Positions 1,948 to 23,981 of a stretch of DNA of 43,627 nt are shown here, piece after piece. A program made the position numbers and the translations under genes. This DNA comes from Escherichia phage TheodorHerzl. Numbering within the stretch: position 1 is the stretch's first letter; each line of letters begins with the position of its first letter. Location: sequence record MZ501107, one strand, 5' to 3'. The notes below the pieces were generated by a model. That model made no database searches and was not told the origin of the DNA. It was given only the letters and a program-made list of their open reading frames with translations.

Positions 1948-3468
1948 ATGACCGTTAACGTTGACAACCAGCACCCGCTCTATGCGCGCATCGCGCCAGA
2001 GTGGAAAATGATCCGTGACTGTGTAGCAGGGGAGCGCGCCGTGAAGGCGTGCGGCCCCTTATACCTGCCACACCCAGCCAGTGGCGACAACACTGACCCG
2101 AAAGCACGGGCGCGGTATAAGGCGTACAAGCAACGCGCTGTATTCATGAACGCCACCGCCCGTACACTTAACGCGCTGTTAGGCGTTGCCTTTGCTAAAC
2201 CGGTAAGTCTGGACCTTTCCGGGGCAATGGCTGACCTGATTGACGACGTAGACGGCAGCGGTATGCCGCTGCCGCAACTCCTGCGCGGTGCTATGTCTGA
2301 AGTTCTGCAATCAGGCCGTGCGGGCTTTATGGTCGACTACGACCGCCAGGCGCATTTTGATGAACTTGGTAACGTAGTGCCGCAGACAGCCGCCGAGATG
2401 GCGTCACACCGCCCGCTTATCCGCCTGTACACGGCAGAACAGATCATCAACTGGCGGCAGACCCACGGCGTCGATACGCTAATTGTGCTGAAGGAGACGG
2501 ATGAAATCAGCACCGAAGACCCGGACGACTTCGCAAACCACGAAGTAACAATCTGGACCGAGCTTCGCATGATTAACGGTGCAGCACACGCCCGCCGCTG
2601 GTACTACAACGCCGACACGTCCGAGGTGCAAATGGACTTGCCGCGTGGATTCACCCGCACCGACCTTGTACCGCTGGTGGATGCTGCCGGTAATGCGCTG
2701 ACACAACTTCCGTTTTGCTGGTGTGGCGCGGTGGATAACAACGCGACGCCAGACGCCGCGCCGCTGGCGGATATTGCATCCATCAACATTAAGCACTACA
2801 ACGCCGAAGCGGACGTCGCCGAGATTGCGCACATCGTGGGCCAACCTACCCTGGTGGCAACTGGCTTGACTCAATCATGGGCGGACAAAAACCTGAAAGG
2901 CGGCATCGCGCTCGGAGCGACTAAGGGCGTTATCCTTGGCCAGAACATGGACGCCAAACTGATTCAGGCCGAGGAGCGCAACTTGTCTGTTACACTGTGT
3001 GAGCGACGCGAATTGCAAATGGCTAAACTGGGCGCGGCCCTGGTCGAGAAGGGGACCGCACCTAAGACGGCAACCGAGGCGGCATACGATGCGCAGACTG
3101 ATAACAGTATCCTGTCGCTTATTGCCGGTAACGTTGAGAAGGCTTTCAACCGTGCGCTGCAAATCGTCCAGCTATTCACGGGCGACACTGCCGACCAGCG
3201 CGTAACGCTGAACAAGTTCTACACCGAAATCACGGTTGATGCGCAGCTTATGACCGCGATGATGTCGGGGGTGCAGACCGGCACGGTCCGCCTGGCTGAC
3301 TTCATCAAGTGGATGATGGCGCAGGGTGTCATCGACGACTCGCAAACCGTCGAGCAGGTGGAAGACGAATTGCGAAATCAGAATCCATTGCCCCAAATGT
3401 CCCCCGATGCGGTAGAATCTACCGAAGAAGACCCGGACAAGGTAGCGGACGATGGCGAGAACAATTAA
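1948..3468 (+). CDS. portal protein
   Basis: 506 aa ORF immediately after terL, with RBS AAGGAAA upstream and an acidic C-terminus. Assignment by size and synteny. Confidence 0.85.
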   Translation: MTVNVDNQHPLYARIAPEWKMIRDCVAGERAVKACGPLYLPHPASGDNTDPKARARYKAYKQRAVFMNATARTLNALLGVAFAKPVSLDLSGAMADLIDDVDGSGMPLPQLLRGAMSEVLQSGRAGFMVDYDRQAHFDELGNVVPQTAAEMASHRPLIRLYTAEQIINWRQTHGVDTLIVLKETDEISTEDPDDFANHEVTIWTELRMINGAAHARRWYYNADTSEVQMDLPRGFTRTDLVPLVDAAGNALTQLPFCWCGAVDNNATPDAAPLADIASINIKHYNAEADVAEIAHIVGQPTLVATGLTQSWADKNLKGGIALGATKGVILGQNMDAKLIQAEERNLSVTLCERRELQMAKLGAALVEKGTAPKTATEAAYDAQTDNSILSLIAGNVEKAFNRALQIVQLFTGDTADQRVTLNKFYTEITVDAQLMTAMMSGVQTGTVRLADFIKWMMAQGVIDDSQTVEQVEDELRNQNPLPQMSPDAVESTEEDPDKVADDGENN

Positions 3469-4555
3469 TCAATATATGGCGGACCGCATGATCCGCCGTC
3501 ACATCTTCACCCAGCGCCTGAGCAATGACCAGGCGCGGAGGGTGCTGGCTATGTGGGAGAAGTTCCGGCCCACGTTACTGGGTAAGCTGACCGAGTTACT
3601 TGATGGCAAAAAGTCCATGAATAACAAGGCACTTACCACACTTTTAACGCAACTCGACAAGACCGTTAAAACGGAACTGCGCGCCGAGTTTAAAGTGCTG
3701 GCGGAGAGCCTTCAGGAGTTCGCCGACACCGAGGCTGATTATCTCGCTGACACACTAACGGCAGCGATCCAGCCCGCTGTCGCCGTACCCGCTGTTGAAG
3801 TAGTTGGCGTTGTTACCGGCGCGCAGATTGCAGCGACGGCAGTGAAAAACCCGTTCCAGGGTAATACGATGATGCAATGGCCTGACTCACTTTCCGAGTG
3901 GACCCGGACGCAGATCGGCAACCAGGTGCGCGCCGGATTCATCCAGGGCAAGCCAACGATGGAAATTATCGCGGACGTGAGGCGCGCACTCGGCGGTCGT
4001 AGTGCGCAAGCGATCTCAAGCGTTGTTAAGTCCGCGGTCAACCACTATGCGGCGACCGCCCGCGAATTAATGGTAAAAGCTAATGACGATATTCTCGAAG
4101 GTCGCCAATGGTTGGCTACATTGGACACTCATACTTCCCCTATGTGCCAGCTACGCGATCGCCTGTTTTATCCTGTTGACGTCACTCCCGACACCAAAGG
4201 AAAACGCGGCGGGAAAGTGGTGGCGGGATCACAATATGGCGCTGGTCCGGGCAAGCTGCATTATTGCTGCCGTTCGACGGAGACGTGGAAAGTTAAGGGC
4301 ATGGAAGATTGGCCCAGTGGTAAGCGTCCGGCACTGAAGGCTGACGCGGGCCGATTGCTGAGTGAGCAGGTCGACGCGCAGACTGATTTCTTCTCCTGGG
4401 TGCAGCGCCAGCCTCGCCATATTCTGGAGGAATTATATGGGGTGCAGCGCGCCGATCAGATTATGCGCGGCGTGAAAGTTCCGAAGATGTTTACCGATTC
4501 TGGCGAACTGATGACTATTGCACAGCTTAAAAACCGGGGGTTATGGCGTGATTAA
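3452..4555 (+). CDS. head morphogenesis / minor head protein (Mu F / SPP1 gp7-like)
   Basis: 367 aa overlapping the portal 3-prime end. Position and the region WLATLDTHTSPMCQLRDRLFYPVD are typical of this family as I recall it. Confidence 0.75.
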   Translation: MARTINQYMADRMIRRHIFTQRLSNDQARRVLAMWEKFRPTLLGKLTELLDGKKSMNNKALTTLLTQLDKTVKTELRAEFKVLAESLQEFADTEADYLADTLTAAIQPAVAVPAVEVVGVVTGAQIAATAVKNPFQGNTMMQWPDSLSEWTRTQIGNQVRAGFIQGKPTMEIIADVRRALGGRSAQAISSVVKSAVNHYAATARELMVKANDDILEGRQWLATLDTHTSPMCQLRDRLFYPVDVTPDTKGKRGGKVVAGSQYGAGPGKLHYCCRSTETWKVKGMEDWPSGKRPALKADAGRLLSEQVDAQTDFFSWVQRQPRHILEELYGVQRADQIMRGVKVPKMFTDSGELMTIAQLKNRGLWRD

Positions 4556-16329: not shown

Positions 16330-16937
16330 CCACATTTAAATTGTACGGCGTCTTAGGACGTCGTTTTGGTAAAGTGCATAAGCTGGACTGCTTCACACCG
16401 GGCGAAGGAATCACCGGCTTGTGTGTGAAGTTGCCAGGGTTACAAGACTTTTTAATGTCAGCCCACCTGGACAACATGATGTTCAAAGTGCGCAAGGGCA
16501 ATCACACCATGACCGGCTACGATGAGCTGGGCGAGTTCCACGGCGACCGCGTAGTGACCATCGCGCCGGTTATGACGGGCGCAAAAAGCGGACTGGGCCA
16601 ATTGCTGGCGGGTGTAGCGATCGTGGTGGCGTCGTTCTATACCGGAGGGCTTGCGACTGCCGCTTTCGGAGCTTCAGCGGCGACCGCGGCATCTATCGGC
16701 GCAGCGACGTTTTCGTTCGGGATGTCGATGGCGCTGGGTGGCGTTATGCAATTGTTATCACCGCAACCGAAGGGATTGCAAACACGGCAGGACGTGGATA
16801 ACAAGGCGTCGTATGCGTTCGGCGGACCGGTAAACACGACCGCGCAAGGTACGGCACTTGGTGTATTATGGGGCGAGCGTGAGATCGGCGGCGCTATTAT
16901 TTCCGCCGGAATCGTAACCGAGGACTTGAACGAATGA
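16320..16937 (+). CDS. tail assembly protein I-like
   Basis: 205 aa with a Gly/Ala-rich hydrophobic C-terminal half, lying between the K-like and J-like genes. Confidence 0.7.
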   Translation: MAMTTFKLYGVLGRRFGKVHKLDCFTPGEGITGLCVKLPGLQDFLMSAHLDNMMFKVRKGNHTMTGYDELGEFHGDRVVTIAPVMTGAKSGLGQLLAGVAIVVASFYTGGLATAAFGASAATAASIGAATFSFGMSMALGGVMQLLSPQPKGLQTRQDVDNKASYAFGGPVNTTAQGTALGVLWGEREIGGAIISAGIVTEDLNE

Positions 16938-19900
16938 CGATTATCTACGACGTCACGGGCCATAAAGGCGGCGGTGGCAAGCAGCACACCCCACAGGAGA
17001 CGCCTGACAGCCTGCATTCGCTGGCTAAAATCCGCATCTTGCTCGCGCTGGGCGAAGGTGAGTTCGAAGGCATTACCGACCCTAACGAATTACGGCAGCG
17101 CGTATACCTGGACGGAACACCGATCCAGAACGCCGACCGGTCTGAAAACTTCCCAGGCGCGCGCGTGGAGTTCCGCCCAGGCACGCAGCATCAAGACGTG
17201 ATTCACGGATTTTCTGCGGTGGAAAGCGAGCAAACAGTGGGCGTAAAACTGGAAAACGGCACGCCGTGGGTGCGCCAGATTAATGACACCAGTCTTGACG
17301 CCGTGCGCATTCGAATCGGCATTCCGGCCCTATACACTAACGAAGATAATGGCGACCTGGTGGGCGGGCGCATCGACTATAAGATCGTTGTGTATACGGA
17401 TAACGCCGACCCGCGTGAGTTCAGATTCGCCGCCGTTGGTAAAACAATGTCGCTATATGAGCGCGACCACCGCATCGAATTACCGCCGAACGTGAATACC
17501 GGCTGGCGAGTGGAGGTGCACCGCATAACGGCAGACTCCACATCGGCGAAAGTGGTGAACGATATTCAGGTGCAATCCATCACTGAGATTATCGACGCCC
17601 GCCTGCGTTACCCGCTAACCGCGCTGTTGTTTGTGGAGTTCGACGCCAAAGCGTTCCAGAACATCCCGCGCGTGTCCATCAAGTGCAAAGGCCGCAAAGT
17701 TCTAATACCGAACAACTACGACCCGATTAATCATACCTATTCCGGGGACTGGGACGGCACGTTTAAACGCGCATGGACGGATAACCCCGCGTGGCACTGG
17801 TACGATATTTGTATTACTGAGCGCTTCGGCCTCGGTCGGCGTATCAAACCGCAAATGTTAAACCGGTACGCGCTCTACCAGATTGCGCAGCGCTGCGATC
17901 AGTTGGTCAGCGACGGCAACGGTGGTCGAGAAATCCGCTTTAAGAATGATATGTACATTCAGTCACAGACGGATGCCTGGACCGTGCTTAAGGATTTAGC
18001 CGCTATCTTTGCCGGTATGACCTGGTGGGGAAATCAGATGTTGAATATCGTCAGTGACCAGCCGGTCGCAGCGGTATCGCACACCATCACCAACGCCTCG
18101 GTCATTGATGGTCGATTCGACTACGCGTCCGGTAGCCAGAAAACTCGGTATTCCACATTCGCGGTAGCATACGGCAACTCGAAGAACCACTATGAAGATG
18201 CCATTGCTACGGGGCAGCGTGTCGAACTGGTACGCCGCCATAAGATTAACCGTCTGGATATAACGGCGATCGGCTGTACGCGTGAGTCAGAAGCGCAACG
18301 ACGTGGGCACTGGGCGCTAATCTCCAACCAGCTTGACCAGCAAGTTAGCTTTAAGGTTGGCATGGAAGGACTATTCTTTATTCCGGGTAGCGTAGTCGCG
18401 ATCGCCGATACAAACATTTCTGGAGGCTTCGAGACACGCGGCGGTCGCCTGTTGTCGGACCCTGGCACGCGTACCGTGCTTAACACTGACAGCGAAATCA
18501 CATTCCGCCCTGGTGATAAGTTCCTGGTGCGCACCGATAGCGGAAATGTGGAGACTCGCGAGATCGCCAGCGTCAACGGCAACAAGGTTACGCTAAAAAC
18601 CGCACTGGACGCCGACCCGATTCCTGATCAGCCGTTTTGCGTCGATGGCAACGATATCCAGTTGCAGAAGTTCCGCATCACCGACCTGGAATATGACGAC
18701 TCTACCAGCACTTTTTCAGTGCGCGGGATCGAGTACAACGATAGCAAATATGATGCCGTTGATAATGGCGCTCGCCTTGACCCTGGCATCTTTACGCAAG
18801 TGCCTGACGGCGTAATGAAGGGGCCGGAGTCAGTGACCATCACCCCGTCGCAGATTTCATCGCAAGGCCAGCTAATCACCAACGTGGATATTGTATTCCC
18901 GCCGGTGAAGGACGCCGTGGTGTATGAAATCCAGTGGCGACGTACCAGCTTGCAGAATATGGCGATCCAGTGGGGAAACGACTGGGTAAACATCCCCCGC
19001 ACGGCATCGAACGGCGCTCACATCCCTAACGTGTTCTCCGGTAACTACCAGGCACGCGTCCGCGCAATCGGTATGGGCGAGATTTCGTCCCCGTGGGTGT
19101 CGTCCGCTATCACGCCGATCGAAGGTCGTCTCGGCGGGCTTAACGCGCCAATCATCACCAACGCGATTTCGGGCCTCCACCAAATTTTGTGGAAGTGGAA
19201 CCACAACAACGCCGCGACGGATATCTCTTACACCGAGCTTGAAGTCCGCAAGACTGGTGAGACGGAATGGAAGTTCCTAACCAACGTCCCATATCCGGGG
19301 GCGGAGTATGCGCAAACGTCACTGGAGTTCGGCATCTACCAGCAGTTGCGCGCCCGCGTAGCAGATAAAATCGGCAACCTGTCGGACTGGTCGGCCCAGT
19401 TTGAAGGGCAGGTGAGTGACAAAGTTGACGAGTACATGAAGGGGCTTGATGACGAGTTCTTGACTTCCGAGGATGGTAAGCACTTCCAGGAAGCTATTAA
19501 CACGATCCCGCAAGGCATTTATGAGTCAATGCTCACCGACGCCCAGCAGCTATTCAATGCCCGCGCCGAGTATAAAGGGATTTATGCGGAAATCACGGTG
19601 GCGTATAACGTGGCGGCGGATGCCCACAAGGCGGTCGCGCAACTTGAGACGTTGATCGGCACTCGTCTTGACGATGCAGAAGCGTCGATCCACACGTTGC
19701 AGACCGCGCAAAGCACGCATGAACAAGCGTTCGCCCAGTATCAACAAACTGTTGCCGCTAAGTTCGGGGAGCAGGAATCAGCCATCCAGCAGGTACAAAC
19801 GGCAACGGCAGACGTAGCGGGAGCGCTGGCGGAGTACAAGACCCAGGTAGCGACACAGTTCGGTCAGCAGTCCGCCGCGATCGAGCAGAAGATGACGTCT

Positions 19901-20386
19901 TCGTTTAACCATGCTGGTGGTAGCGCCACCTACAGCCTTAAGGCGGGCGTGACGTATAACGGGACTTACTATGATGCCGGTATGCAGCTTTCCGTCGTGA
20001 CGTCGGGCAACGCAGTTAAATCTCGTATTGCGTTCAAGGCCGACCAGTTCTACATTATGCACCCGTCGAATGGGTCGCTTTCGTCCGCGTTTATCGTTGA
20101 CGGCGGTCAGGTGTATATTGACACGGCGCGCATCAAGGACGCGTCCATCAATTTCGCGCAGATCACGGACACGCTGCAATCAAATAACTTCGTTTCGGGG
20201 TCACGCGGCTGGCGTATCCAGAAAGGCGGCGCTGCGGAGTTTAACGAAGTAACGGCCCGCGGCAGGCTGTACGCTAACAGTGGTGAGTTCGCTTTTAACG
20301 GACAAAATAACACCGTGCAGATTAACGGGAATGGGGTTACAGTTAACCTACCCGGAGGGGGAAGGGTTGTATTAGGTGTGTTCTGA
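16934..20386 (+). CDS. host specificity / central tail fibre protein (J-like)
   Basis: 1150 aa with ATGA overlap to the upstream gene. Size and position match lambda J-type tip proteins. Confidence 0.9.
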   Translation: MTIIYDVTGHKGGGGKQHTPQETPDSLHSLAKIRILLALGEGEFEGITDPNELRQRVYLDGTPIQNADRSENFPGARVEFRPGTQHQDVIHGFSAVESEQTVGVKLENGTPWVRQINDTSLDAVRIRIGIPALYTNEDNGDLVGGRIDYKIVVYTDNADPREFRFAAVGKTMSLYERDHRIELPPNVNTGWRVEVHRITADSTSAKVVNDIQVQSITEIIDARLRYPLTALLFVEFDAKAFQNIPRVSIKCKGRKVLIPNNYDPINHTYSGDWDGTFKRAWTDNPAWHWYDICITERFGLGRRIKPQMLNRYALYQIAQRCDQLVSDGNGGREIRFKNDMYIQSQTDAWTVLKDLAAIFAGMTWWGNQMLNIVSDQPVAAVSHTITNASVIDGRFDYASGSQKTRYSTFAVAYGNSKNHYEDAIATGQRVELVRRHKINRLDITAIGCTRESEAQRRGHWALISNQLDQQVSFKVGMEGLFFIPGSVVAIADTNISGGFETRGGRLLSDPGTRTVLNTDSEITFRPGDKFLVRTDSGNVETREIASVNGNKVTLKTALDADPIPDQPFCVDGNDIQLQKFRITDLEYDDSTSTFSVRGIEYNDSKYDAVDNGARLDPGIFTQVPDGVMKGPESVTITPSQISSQGQLITNVDIVFPPVKDAVVYEIQWRRTSLQNMAIQWGNDWVNIPRTASNGAHIPNVFSGNYQARVRAIGMGEISSPWVSSAITPIEGRLGGLNAPIITNAISGLHQILWKWNHNNAATDISYTELEVRKTGETEWKFLTNVPYPGAEYAQTSLEFGIYQQLRARVADKIGNLSDWSAQFEGQVSDKVDEYMKGLDDEFLTSEDGKHFQEAINTIPQGIYESMLTDAQQLFNARAEYKGIYAEITVAYNVAADAHKAVAQLETLIGTRLDDAEASIHTLQTAQSTHEQAFAQYQQTVAAKFGEQESAIQQVQTATADVAGALAEYKTQVATQFGQQSAAIEQKMTSSFNHAGGSATYSLKAGVTYNGTYYDAGMQLSVVTSGNAVKSRIAFKADQFYIMHPSNGSLSSAFIVDGGQVYIDTARIKDASINFAQITDTLQSNNFVSGSRGWRIQKGGAAEFNEVTARGRLYANSGEFAFNGQNNTVQINGNGVTVNLPGGGRVVLGVF

Positions 20387-20390
20387 AATT

Positions 20391-20410
20391 AAAGCCCCGC
20401 AAGGGGCTTT
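20391..20410. terminator. bidirectional terminator hairpin between the J-like gene and the convergent minus-strand cassette
   Basis: AAAGCCCC-GCAA-GGGGCTTT, A/T-flanked on both sides. Confidence 0.65.
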
Positions 20411-21344
20411 AATACATGTTTGGGAGGTACGGCAGCGGAGTTGGTATCGTAACGTCGGGTCTGTTGCCGATTGCGTACCTTACAATCCGGGAGCCAGTTC
20501 CCGACCTTACATATCCGCCACTCATAACTACGCCTTTGTTTCTTAGTTCCTTATATGCTGGTATGGCCCTTGTGTTGAACCCACACCTTAGAATGGGGAA
20601 GTAAGAATCCCCGATATACTGATTGCTTCCTGACAGACTTATAAACCCGGACACAACAAAGGGCCTGGTAACTGTTGAAAGAATACAGGCGCCGTTGCGG
20701 TTAAATATGTTTAACCCCGGTCCCGGAACGGGCGCAACCATCTGGAAAATAACCAAATCCATAGTAACACTTCCGGGGGTGTGCCCTGTATCTTTTGTGT
20801 TTATGTTTGTACAAATCAACCGATTAACTCCGTCGTACTCAACAGAAACACCGGAATTGTCCCACCTGCCGAACGGTATGCCGTAGATGGGGAGGGTGTA
20901 ACTATCATGGAATGATATAGTTTGAGCAAATTTGCAGACAAGCAACCGGTCCGTTGTGGTTATCGATGTAAAATCCGTACTGTCGGCAACGTAGATCCCC
21001 TGGCCTGTCGATGCTCTAAGAACCTCAACTACAGTTCCAGAGAACTGCGTTACGCGGTCGGGATAACCATTCACAGAGCCAATAGATATAGTTCCGCTGG
21101 ATGCTGTTGACGAAAAGCCCTTTATATAATAAGCCTCAACACCCCGGTCCAGTTCGAAGGAGTATGCGCCATTGTTCGGCAGCAGAAACCTTGAAGCCCC
21201 TTCATTACCTTTAATGGGGAATGACTTGCTAAACCCGCCACTTGAAACGTTGAAGTTACCCGCAAAATTCAAGGCACGCATACCCGCGGTGATTGTCATC
21301 GGTTTACGGCCATCCTTAAGATCGATGTAAATACCTTGCGCCAT
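20409..21344 (-). CDS. hypothetical beta-rich Ser/Thr/Gly-rich protein (311 aa), possible receptor-binding or host-range accessory protein
   Basis: Minus-strand ORF against the flow of the tail operon. Its ATG overlaps the stop of the upstream lipoprotein gene (TAATG). Appears lower in GC than its flanks, by eye. No recognisable motif. Confidence 0.6.
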   Translation of the reverse strand: MAQGIYIDLKDGRKPMTITAGMRALNFAGNFNVSSGGFSKSFPIKGNEGASRFLLPNNGAYSFELDRGVEAYYIKGFSSTASSGTISIGSVNGYPDRVTQFSGTVVEVLRASTGQGIYVADSTDFTSITTTDRLLVCKFAQTISFHDSYTLPIYGIPFGRWDNSGVSVEYDGVNRLICTNINTKDTGHTPGSVTMDLVIFQMVAPVPGPGLNIFNRNGACILSTVTRPFVVSGFISLSGSNQYIGDSYFPILRCGFNTRAIPAYKELRNKGVVMSGGYVRSGTGSRIVRYAIGNRPDVTIPTPLPYLPNMY

Positions 21345-21574
21345 TAGTTCCACTCCCGGGAGCCATAATCGCGAACGGAGCCGCCATGCCCTTTAATTCC
21401 GTCATAACGAATATCAACTTCACCCGCCGGAACGACTACACCGCCTTTCCATTTAGCCACACATACGCCGCTTGCTTGCGTAGCGCACCAACCATCCGGA
21501 CGCGGGCCAGAAGAGCAACCAACAGTTATTACTACTACCGCGGCAATGATTGCGGATTTGATTAAAGTTTTCAT
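21344..21574 (-). CDS. small outer-membrane lipoprotein (76 aa), candidate Cor/Llp-like superinfection-exclusion protein
   Basis: RBS GGAGAT upstream. Signal peptide with lipobox [20 protein letters not shown], and a mature part with two more Cys. Position next to the tail fibre genes matches where T1/phi80 cor and T5 llp sit. Confidence 0.55.
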
Positions 21575-21654: not shown

Positions 21655-23379
21655 ATGGCAGCGGGTACGCTCTCCGTAACGAACAATAGCAAGGCGGTAG
21701 TAGGGGTCGGCACAACGTTCACCGCGTTCAAGGCTGGCGACTTCTTATCGCTGGTGGTAGGGCAAGTGCCTTACACCGTAGCGATCGCATCAATCGAAAG
21801 TAACACGGCGCTTACGCTGGTGCTGCCGTTCGACGGCCCAACGGCAACCGGCCTTGCGTGGGACGGCGTTAAACGCGATACCCTGTCACTGGCAACGATG
21901 GGCGTTACCGTCCAGGCCCAGAAAGCATTGCGCTTGATGATTGCCGACGAAAACAACTGGCGTGCAATCTTCGGCGAAGAAGAAGAAATCTCGGTCACGC
22001 TACCTAACGGTCAAGTGGTGCAGGGTATGTCGTGGGGCTATTTGTCCTCCTTGCTGAAGGAAGTAGACCCCGTTGAGATGCGCAACCTTCAACAACAGGC
22101 CGAGAACGCTCGCAACCAGGCGCAAGGCTACCGTGATGAGGCGGAAGGTTTTAAAAACCAGATTAACCCTGCACTATTCGTGCAGAAGTCCCAAAACCTG
22201 AATGACGTTGCCGATAAAGCTGAGGCGCGCGCTAACTTGCAAGTTTTATTTGCGTCAAACTCTAACCTGGGGTCTACCGACCTCAACACGCTCAACAGCA
22301 CGAAGGAAGGGCGTTATTACCAGACCACATCGGTGAACGCTACACCAGAGCGTAACTACCCGTTTCAGGAAGCCGGTTGTCTTACCGTGTTTAAAACCGG
22401 CGGGGGTAGTGTGGAGGCTTGCATCCAGGAGTACACCACGTTTTCAAGCCTGCGTCGGTTCGTCCGTGCGCTCGCTGGGGCGGTGTGGACGGAGTGGAAG
22501 GAGATCTACCTGCAAGGGTCGTCCCCAACATACGAAAATATCGACTCGACAGGACGAGTTAGATCTGAAAAGGCATATCCGGCGTTCGAGTGGGTGTCGA
22601 CGAGAGTAGACGACGATTTCATCGGTAAGCGAGTCAGCATTGAGAACGACACAGGCGTTAATATGTATATGTTCTTCATGCAGAAAGACACAACCGCAAA
22701 CAGACGTGTCGTAGCGTTCGCAAGGCCAAACTCTACTGTTTTCCACTTCGTAGGATATAACGGCGGGCTACCCACAGACGGCAACAGCGCCCCGTCGGAT
22801 AACATTAACTTTAACACGCAACCGCAAGGATGGCGTATGGTGTCCGGCGGCTGGCAAAATGCACCGCTCGCCGGGAACAACTACGGGACTTTATTCACGC
22901 AGTGTGTGCAAGGTGTGTCGCAGGGGGATTCTAAAAACAGCGGCACTTCTGGCCTATGGTACTCACAGCGATATTTTAATACAGAATCGCGGGCGTTTAT
23001 CCGAAATCAAACAAACAACGCAGACTGGGGCGGGTGGTATGAATTTACTAAAACGGCAGTCTCGGATGAACGCCTGAAGAATGTAAAAGGTAATTTGAAT
23101 GTTGAAGGTGCGCTCGATAACATCAACCGCATGGAATTTAAAATATTCTCGTTTAAGGATGAGAAGGCCGGTAAGGGGTATCGTCGCGGTGTTATCTCGC
23201 AGCAGATTCGCCAGATCGATAAAGAGTACACGAAGGAGATCGGCGGGTACTATCACCTCGACCAGACACCAATGCTACTGGACGCCCTAGCGGCAATTAA
23301 GGCGTTGCGTGCGCGTGACGAGGCTAATAAAGCAGAGATTGCAGAACTGAAGGCGGCTATTGCCGAATTGAAGCAATAA
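21655..23379 (+). CDS. tail fibre protein with C-terminal intramolecular chaperone (S74-like) domain
   Basis: 574 aa with RBS AAGAGGA. The C-terminal ~105 aa begin at the SDERLKN motif and end in a coiled coil, typical of self-cleaving fibre chaperone domains. N-terminus is homologous to the 14202 gene product. Confidence 0.8.
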   Translation: MAAGTLSVTNNSKAVVGVGTTFTAFKAGDFLSLVVGQVPYTVAIASIESNTALTLVLPFDGPTATGLAWDGVKRDTLSLATMGVTVQAQKALRLMIADENNWRAIFGEEEEISVTLPNGQVVQGMSWGYLSSLLKEVDPVEMRNLQQQAENARNQAQGYRDEAEGFKNQINPALFVQKSQNLNDVADKAEARANLQVLFASNSNLGSTDLNTLNSTKEGRYYQTTSVNATPERNYPFQEAGCLTVFKTGGGSVEACIQEYTTFSSLRRFVRALAGAVWTEWKEIYLQGSSPTYENIDSTGRVRSEKAYPAFEWVSTRVDDDFIGKRVSIENDTGVNMYMFFMQKDTTANRRVVAFARPNSTVFHFVGYNGGLPTDGNSAPSDNINFNTQPQGWRMVSGGWQNAPLAGNNYGTLFTQCVQGVSQGDSKNSGTSGLWYSQRYFNTESRAFIRNQTNNADWGGWYEFTKTAVSDERLKNVKGNLNVEGALDNINRMEFKIFSFKDEKAGKGYRRGVISQQIRQIDKEYTKEIGGYYHLDQTPMLLDALAAIKALRARDEANKAEIAELKAAIAELKQ

Positions 23380-23383
23380 ATAG

Positions 23384-23409
23384 AAGGGGCCGTATGGCCC
23401 CTTTTTTAG
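23384..23409. terminator. terminator between the convergent tail fibre gene and the minus-strand early operon
   Basis: AAGGGGCC-GTAT-GGCCCC followed by six T. Confidence 0.75.
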
Positions 23410-23981
23410 TTTAAGTTTTCCCAGTCCATTTTGCGCCGCACTAGCGGGCTTTCGTAATACTCCTTCCCATCCACTTCCACTAAGGGCCAGTCATTAACAA
23501 TGACGTAAGGCTCTGCGATATCCTCGATCACGCCGTGCGCGCTATGTTGTCCGAAATCTACGCCCACCAGGATAACACCGGCAACGCGACGCGTGAGATA
23601 CTCGCGAGCGCAACGGGCCTCGACCAGTCCTCGACGTATGCCGCTGGTGGCCTTAACCTCGTAGGTCCAGACGGCATCGATCACATGTTCGCGGAAGTCG
23701 GGACCGGATTTTACCTTGCGCTTGCCGACCATGATAATATCGCCGCGGTCGATAGTGTTAGCGCTAAACAGGCCGGTACGCATTAGTAAGCCTTGCGGGA
23801 TACAGCTACGCCCACCCGTCTGCCCTTCGAGGTACATGCCTGCAAACATTTCGCCCAGCACACCGACGAGTCTGCTTTGCTTGCACGCGTCGGACTTATA
23901 CCGCCACTGGTCAAACTCGATGCTTGCGATCATTGCCGCCAGGTGGAATTGTTTACCTGATATTTCATATTCGCCGTACAT
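23406..23981 (-). CDS. hypothetical protein, possible PD-(D/E)XK-fold nuclease
   Basis: 191 aa with RBS GGGGGA. The stretch GPDF...DAVWTYEVKAT has PD...ExK-like spacing. Weak assignment. Confidence 0.45.
   Translation of the reverse strand: MYGEYEISGKQFHLAAMIASIEFDQWRYKSDACKQSRLVGVLGEMFAGMYLEGQTGGRSCIPQGLLMRTGLFSANTIDRGDIIMVGKRKVKSGPDFREHVIDAVWTYEVKATSGIRRGLVEARCAREYLTRRVAGVILVGVDFGQHSAHGVIEDIAEPYVIVNDWPLVEVDGKEYYESPLVRRKMDWENLN

Follow-up and report, generated by a model that had tools for sequence, protein, structure and literature searches.

In Escherichia phage TheodorHerzl (Bas14 of the BASEL collection), the lateral tail fibre very probably closes with a 105-residue C-terminal intramolecular chaperone (IMC) of the Peptidase S74 family (aa 470-574), acting through the folding and cleavage mechanism proposed below. 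The window that we analysed, the whole stretch of 43,627 bp, is a complete Dhillonvirus genome, and megablast aligned its first 25 kb to Dhillonvirus genomes (HK578, SO-1, EP23 and many more) at 90-94% identity. S74 chaperones are commonplace on fibres and tailspikes, and the feature is of a standard type that had been annotated and published before. An earlier note had placed such a chaperone in the terminal ~105 residues of the fibre (23062-23379), starting at a serine near residue 470. These coordinates proved exact, since codon 470 is the TCG at 23062-23064 and the TAA stop codon occupies 23377-23379. The features of the gene are collected in the table.

Table. Features of the lateral tail fibre gene of TheodorHerzl and its immediate 3' flank (positions in the 43,627-bp window)
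Feature	Residues	Position	Strand	Basis
Lateral tail fibre gene	574 aa	21655..23379 (incl. stop)	+	ORF
N-terminal anchor domain	~1-148	21655..22098	+	genus-wide conservation
Short alpha-helical (coiled-coil) stalk	~149-195	22099..22239	+	model helices 139-169 and 188-199, low pLDDT
Allele-specific distal receptor-binding region	~196-469	22240..23061	+	beta-rich, knob-like domains suggested by the model
Peptidase S74 intramolecular chaperone domain	470-574	23062..23376	+	Pfam, alignment, profile, model, Foldseek
C-terminal helix, predicted trimeric coiled coil	537-573	23263..23373	+	both models, heptads
Intrinsic-terminator-like hairpin GGGGCC-GTAT-GGCCCC then T run		23382..23405	+	sequence; directly 3' of fibre stop

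The fibre gene carries the Shine-Dalgarno sequence AAGAGGA 8 nt 5' of its ATG. Its product is identical over the full length (100%) to the NCBI entry "lateral tail fiber protein [Escherichia phage TheodorHerzl]", which bears a precomputed PF13884 tag in the database, and PHROGs assigned it to phrog_1980 'tail fiber protein' (E 1e-119). The terminator-like hairpin separates the gene from convergent minus-strand genes; a separate tail-fibre assembly gene is absent 3' of the fibre gene, where the terminator and the convergent genes are found instead. The convergent ORF directly downstream (23406..23981, minus strand, 191 aa) had no Pfam family, and its equivalent in phage Over9000, gp29, is annotated as hypothetical. 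Overlapping ORFs of 63-97 aa on both strands inside 23062-23379 were rejected as genes because they lie wholly within a gene with strong homology support. An NCBIfam scan of the whole fibre returned no family, and neither Pfam nor NCBIfam detected a depolymerase domain in it. Across the 43.6-kb genome, no tRNA genes and no Rfam families at the gathering threshold were found, and a tandem-repeat scan gave nothing relevant to the fibre.

The identity of the C-terminal domain was established by searches at the level of sequence family, solved structure and fold. Residues 470-524 matched positions 1-55 of the 58-position Pfam profile PF13884 Peptidase_S74 ("chaperone of endosialidase") at E 1.2e-8, and the score of 35.5 bits exceeded the gathering cut-off of 22, so that the Pfam check proposed in the earlier note was positive above the curated threshold. 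The domain sits at the extreme C terminus of this PHROG 1980 tail fibre and ends at the stop codon. It opens with EFTKTAV-S470-DERL-K475-NVKG (Lys475 codon at 23077-23079), and the fibre ends with RARDEANKAEIAELKAAIAELKQ, the last residue being Gln574. Of the 40 proteins that a database search retrieved with aa 440-574 as query, almost every one was PF13884-tagged; several, close bacterial homologues among them, are named "pyocin knob domain-containing S74 family peptidase". When a profile built from an alignment of 18 of these aa 440-574 homologues was compared with PDB sequences, it matched an L-shaped tail fibre (8hqz_d, E 2e-10), the ICA domain of MyRF (7dc3, E 3.6e-6) and a further tail fibre (8jov, E 1e-5), with the S-x4-K motif in register in all three profile alignments. 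A single-sequence PDB search with the whole fibre was insufficient to reach the IMC structures, which were found only by the profile; it gave no IMC match and aligned only the N-terminal 72 aa, to 23gd_B. An AlphaFold2 monomer model of aa 440-574 had a mean pLDDT of 87.5, and the best 11 matches of this model to the PDB in Foldseek were all IMC structures (7dc3, 3gud and 3gw6), the best being 7dc3 (TM 0.67, rmsd 2.3 Å, 117 columns). The full-length model, which is of low confidence, again found 7dc3. In tblastn, aa 470-574 matched T5-like lateral fibres (for example, HildyBeyeler at 38-39% identity); similarity to T5-like fibres amounted to 38-47% identity. Pfam, the PDB profile matches and the AlphaFold and Foldseek results thus agree on an S74-type chaperone domain, and the likeness to T5 and K1F fibre and tailspike domains that the note had drawn was borne out by the tblastn matches to T5-like fibres and the Foldseek match to 3gw6.

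The coiled coil that the note had seen at the fibre end was likewise recovered as a predicted helix with a continuous heptad pattern. Both the aa 440-574 model and the full-length model contain one long helix of 37 residues at this place, and its heptad register is unbroken, with L541, I548, D555, I562 and I569 at the a positions and A544, L551, N558, L565 and L572 at the d positions, which supports the coiled-coil reading. By analogy with other IMCs, the helix would be trimeric; the C-terminal three-helix coiled coil of MyRF is the main driving force for its trimerisation (PMC8326128).

We then examined the catalytic residues of the family. Ser470 and Lys475 show the S-x4-K spacing of endoNF (S911/K916), T5 pb1 (S1264/K1269) and MyRF (S587/K592). 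S470, D471 and K475 were invariant in the alignment of 18 diverse homologues (18/18), and among 36 full-length fibre homologues S470 was invariant, with D471 and K475 at least 90% conserved. A dedicated IMC HMM built from close relatives detected 67 IMCs among 120 fibres; the 53 that escaped it almost all bore a PF13884 tag. Serine and lysine occupied the dyad positions in 65 of the 67 IMCs detected; one of the other two reflected an alignment offset only, and the second, P0052, carried a K-to-N change. This protein (637 aa, from an ENA metagenome contig) is otherwise a 95%-identical allele and reads SDERLNN, with Asn in place of the catalytic Lys, a change that may stem from a sequencing error or mark a variant unable to cleave itself. 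The 67 detected IMCs ranged from 100 to 116 aa, so that the 105-aa domain of TheodorHerzl is typical of the clade.

In endoNF and T5 pb1, an upstream basic 'sensor' Arg from the neighbouring chain (R897 and R1250, respectively) completes the active site. An equivalent Arg 14 residues upstream of the Ser was sought in TheodorHerzl; the conserved Arg found in the homologue alignment, R450 in an F-x-R motif, lies 20 residues upstream of Ser470, and because of this different distance its equivalence to the T5/endoNF sensor cannot be claimed from the alignment and the monomer models. Catalysis in MyRF involves no upstream residue, and the sensor is thus not universal (PMC8326128).

The predicted scissile bond is Val469|Ser470, N-terminal to the serine, because T5 pb1 and MyRF are cut there; T5 pb1 is cut at Thr1263-Ser1264, where Lys1269 activates Ser1264 and the S1264A mutation abolishes cleavage (PMC4690869), and MyRF is cut at P586|S587 by its S587/K592 dyad, which is equivalent to endoNF S911/K916 (PMC8326128). 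Cleavage at this bond would convert a 63.4-kDa precursor into a 51.5-kDa fibre (aa 1-469), ending at Val469, and an 11.9-kDa chaperone (aa 470-574); this slightly refines the mature end near residue 470 that the earlier note had given. We infer from T5 pb1, K1F endoNF and MyRF that the fibre trimerises and is cleaved, that the chaperone is released and that the binding site becomes unmasked. In the proposed mechanism, the C-terminal three-helix coiled coil, together with the small alpha/beta part of the domain, would put three nascent chains in register, and this registration would nucleate folding of the upstream trimeric, beta-rich receptor-binding tip. After the trimer has formed correctly, Ser470, activated by Lys475, would cut the bond that precedes it, the chaperone trimer would be released, and the freed distal surface of the mature fibre would bind a surface glycan, probably O-antigen. 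When the literature was searched for proteomic studies of Dhillonvirus fibres in virions, no cleavage data emerged; proteomics of a lysate listed the fibre without a peptide map (PMC10673088).

Among characterised systems, T5 pb1 (PDB 4UW8; PMC4690869) is likewise an E. coli siphovirus lateral fibre with an IMC at its extreme C terminus and the S-x4-K spacing, and it shares the cleavage N-terminal to Ser, the central trimeric coiled coil and the glycan (O-antigen) receptor that are here predicted by analogy. Its chaperone has 133 aa, with long beta-hairpin 'tentacles' wrapped around a bullet-shaped tip (PMC4690869), whereas that of TheodorHerzl has 105 aa, lacks a comparable long hairpin in the predicted secondary structure and follows an unrelated tip that looks knob-like. 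The K1F endoNF domain (MEROPS S74/PF13884) resembles it in the Ser-Lys dyad and in the Foldseek match to 3GW6, but is longer, has the triple beta-helix/beta-prism of a tailspike enzyme as its upstream partner, and was the weaker structural match (TM ~0.5, with a high rmsd). K1F endoNF is the founding member of the family behind PF13884, and the structure of its chaperone (PDB 3GW6) was reportedly described by Schulz et al. in 2010. The MyRF ICA domain (7DC3; PMC8326128) shares the compact build of a small alpha/beta part followed by a long C-terminal helix, as well as the S-D-x-x-x-K motif. The likeness is one of compact domain form and not of function; MyRF is a membrane-bound eukaryotic transcription factor. 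RuthEpting (Bas85) Gp29, JakobBernoulli (Bas07) Gp36 (PMC11990801) and the fibre of IME18 are similar in gene position, coiled-coil stalk and C-terminal IMC. The N-terminal anchor is common to TheodorHerzl and other Dhillonvirus lateral fibres, while that of IME18 is unrelated. The tips described for published Dhillonvirus and Drexlerviridae fibres are T5-like (PMC11990801), in contrast to the knob-like appearance of the TheodorHerzl tip.

Upstream of the chaperone, the fibre showed a mosaic layout. Identity was compared in 30-aa blocks across 35 homologues: aa 1-150 were at least 87% identical per block in nearly all Dhillonvirus alleles, whatever their tip, aa 180-450 were allele-specific (0-30% identity in most alleles), and the IMC was again 67-100% identical in many alleles with unrelated tips. 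The first 72 residues (21655..21870, plus strand) matched residues 1-72 of PDB 23gd_B, 'Distal tail protein gp20' (E 3.4e-5), which may point to a common domain by which such proteins dock to the tail tip. In close alleles of 588-652 aa, AESARDAANTAKTG-like coiled-coil repeats lengthened the protein by 14-78 residues after aa 148 (~22098, plus strand); this stalk insert was nearly their sole difference from the 574-aa fibre, whose stalk was the shortest seen. The inserts indicate that fibre length varies by two-heptad units.

In the mature fibre, the allele-specific distal region would form the tip, with Val469 as its last residue. The full-length AlphaFold monomer model (pLDDT 57.9, pTM 0.26) was usable only at aa 201-285 and in the IMC, with pLDDT of 73-85 for aa 201-285 and moderate values for 310-465. 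Foldseek matched this model at low TM to R1/R2 pyocin fibres (6ct8, 6cl5 and 6cl6, E 5e-4 to 2.5e-3) and also to a phi812 baseplate chain, and a sequence profile gave a weak match to the pyocin fibre 6cl6 (E 0.11). Neither Pfam nor NCBIfam returned a knob-domain family match in the fibre. These model-based matches are suggestive only of a knob-like tip as opposed to a classical triple beta-helix, and a tip of this kind makes the exact folding substrate of the chaperone less certain.

DNA searches revealed different distributions of the three parts. The anchor region was found by megablast in 140 phage records and the 318 bp coding for the IMC in 46 records from several families, while the 822 bp coding for the tip were found in only 8 phage records, representing five phages and including Tunavirus IME18. 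The fibre of this T1-like phage was 78% identical in amino acids over aa 146-573, covering tip and IMC, on an unrelated N terminus. At the gene level, IME18 (MH051911.1) 2150..4174 aligned with positions 22090..23376 of the window (78% aa and ~80% nt identity); the IME18 gene lies between primase/helicase and SSB genes, unlike the neighbourhood in TheodorHerzl. The shared tip and IMC on an unrelated anchor indicate that tip and chaperone travel between phage families as a cassette. A tentative extension of this picture, which we regard as rather doubtful, is that a tip of pyocin-knob type directly bears the S74 chaperone in this allele, and that IMC DNA and anchor serve as homology arms that move tip-plus-chaperone cassettes between Dhillonvirus and Tunavirus. 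In R-pyocins and P2-like phages, the knob-type fold relies on a separate Tfa-type chaperone.

The evidence also bears on other readings of the C-terminal region. The domain might aid trimerisation and yet stay uncleaved as the distal end of the mature fibre, a reading that draws on the analogical basis of the predicted cut, on the stable, folded uncleaved form of T5 (PMC4690869), and on the existence of natural variants such as the close relative P0052, in which Asn replaces the catalytic Lys. We consider it improbable: diverse homologues retain an intact, invariant Ser-Lys dyad, a pattern implying selection for catalysis, and in T5 a retained chaperone blocks receptor binding (PMC4690869). 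Moreover, cryo-EM density was absent for the S74 domain of another BASEL fibre (PMC12143355), as expected if that domain is released. Even less credence is due to the idea that the resemblance is accidental or degenerate and that the fibre ends in a generic coiled coil acting neither as chaperone nor as protease. Coverage by the Pfam model stops after the first 55 residues of the domain, and a coiled coil alone is non-specific, but the sequence profile, the sequence matches to solved structures and the fold search agree independently, and the catalytic residues do not vary in the 18 homologues, so that this explanation is effectively refuted and its probability close to nil.

An alternative of a different kind accepts the release of the chaperone and has the exposed tip dock a separate adhesin, in the manner proposed for S16-type gp37/gp38 fibres, rather than a receptor. 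S74 domains do occur on gp37-like fibres, and a gp38-like adhesin has been raised for one S74-type fibre in the RBPseg paper (PMC12143355). However, no adhesin-like or assembly gene adjoins the fibre gene of TheodorHerzl, as the terminator and convergent non-structural genes follow it, and the module upstream, composed of a DUF6453 protein and a lipoprotein, is separate and tied to the central fibre. The 270-aa allele-specific distal region is itself hypervariable, as expected of a receptor-binding domain, and docking of an adhesin is therefore very unlikely. A self-releasing S74 chaperone behind a tip that would bind the receptor directly is the reading that we prefer.

For this receptor, the earlier note had suggested a polysaccharide, in line with the genus-level literature, which names O-antigen as primary receptor (PMC8594841, PMC11990801). 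Specifically, O-antigen glycans have been proposed as the facultative primary receptor to which the lateral fibres of Dhillonvirus bind (PMC8594841, PMC11990801), and a porin as the target of the central fibre module, the terminal receptor of TheodorHerzl being LptD (PMC8594841). K-12 with restored O16 was infected by none of Bas14-18 (PMC8594841), and later Dhillonvirus isolates cross O16 using their lateral fibres (PMC11990801). One Dhillonvirus lateral fibre, RuthEpting Gp29, has been explicitly described with a "C-terminal IMC domain" (PMC11990801), and IMC domains on lateral fibres of the genus have already been reported (PMC11990801, PMC12309495).

Two minus-strand genes lie between gpJ (16934..20386) and the lateral fibre gene. 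The first (20409..21353) encodes the 314-aa DUF6453 protein (Pfam E 6e-122), and the second (21344..21574) encodes a 76-aa lipoprotein (PF24052 Phage_lipoprotein, E 6e-34). Their location corresponds to the 'bona fide RBP locus', for which the BASEL paper proposed a link to terminal-receptor (LptD) specificity (PMC8594841). Over9000, which has the closest fibre, carries a different module there, consisting of two plus-strand genes and a superinfection-exclusion gene. That the modules differ despite the closeness of the fibres indicates that the two host-recognition loci assort independently.

The predicted end at Val469 and the masses of 51.5 and 11.9 kDa may aid expression of the fibre, chaperone-free modelling and tip swaps for retargeting small siphoviruses. 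The practical value is small, and the understanding of tail fibres is unchanged, S74 chaperones being described for the genus. What is added to existing knowledge is the precise predicted maturation products and the mosaic picture, in which a conserved anchor and IMC flank a rare tip shared with a Tunavirus. If the homology-arm reading is true, the IMC would serve in folding and, at the same time, be the unit that renders receptor-binding tips portable.
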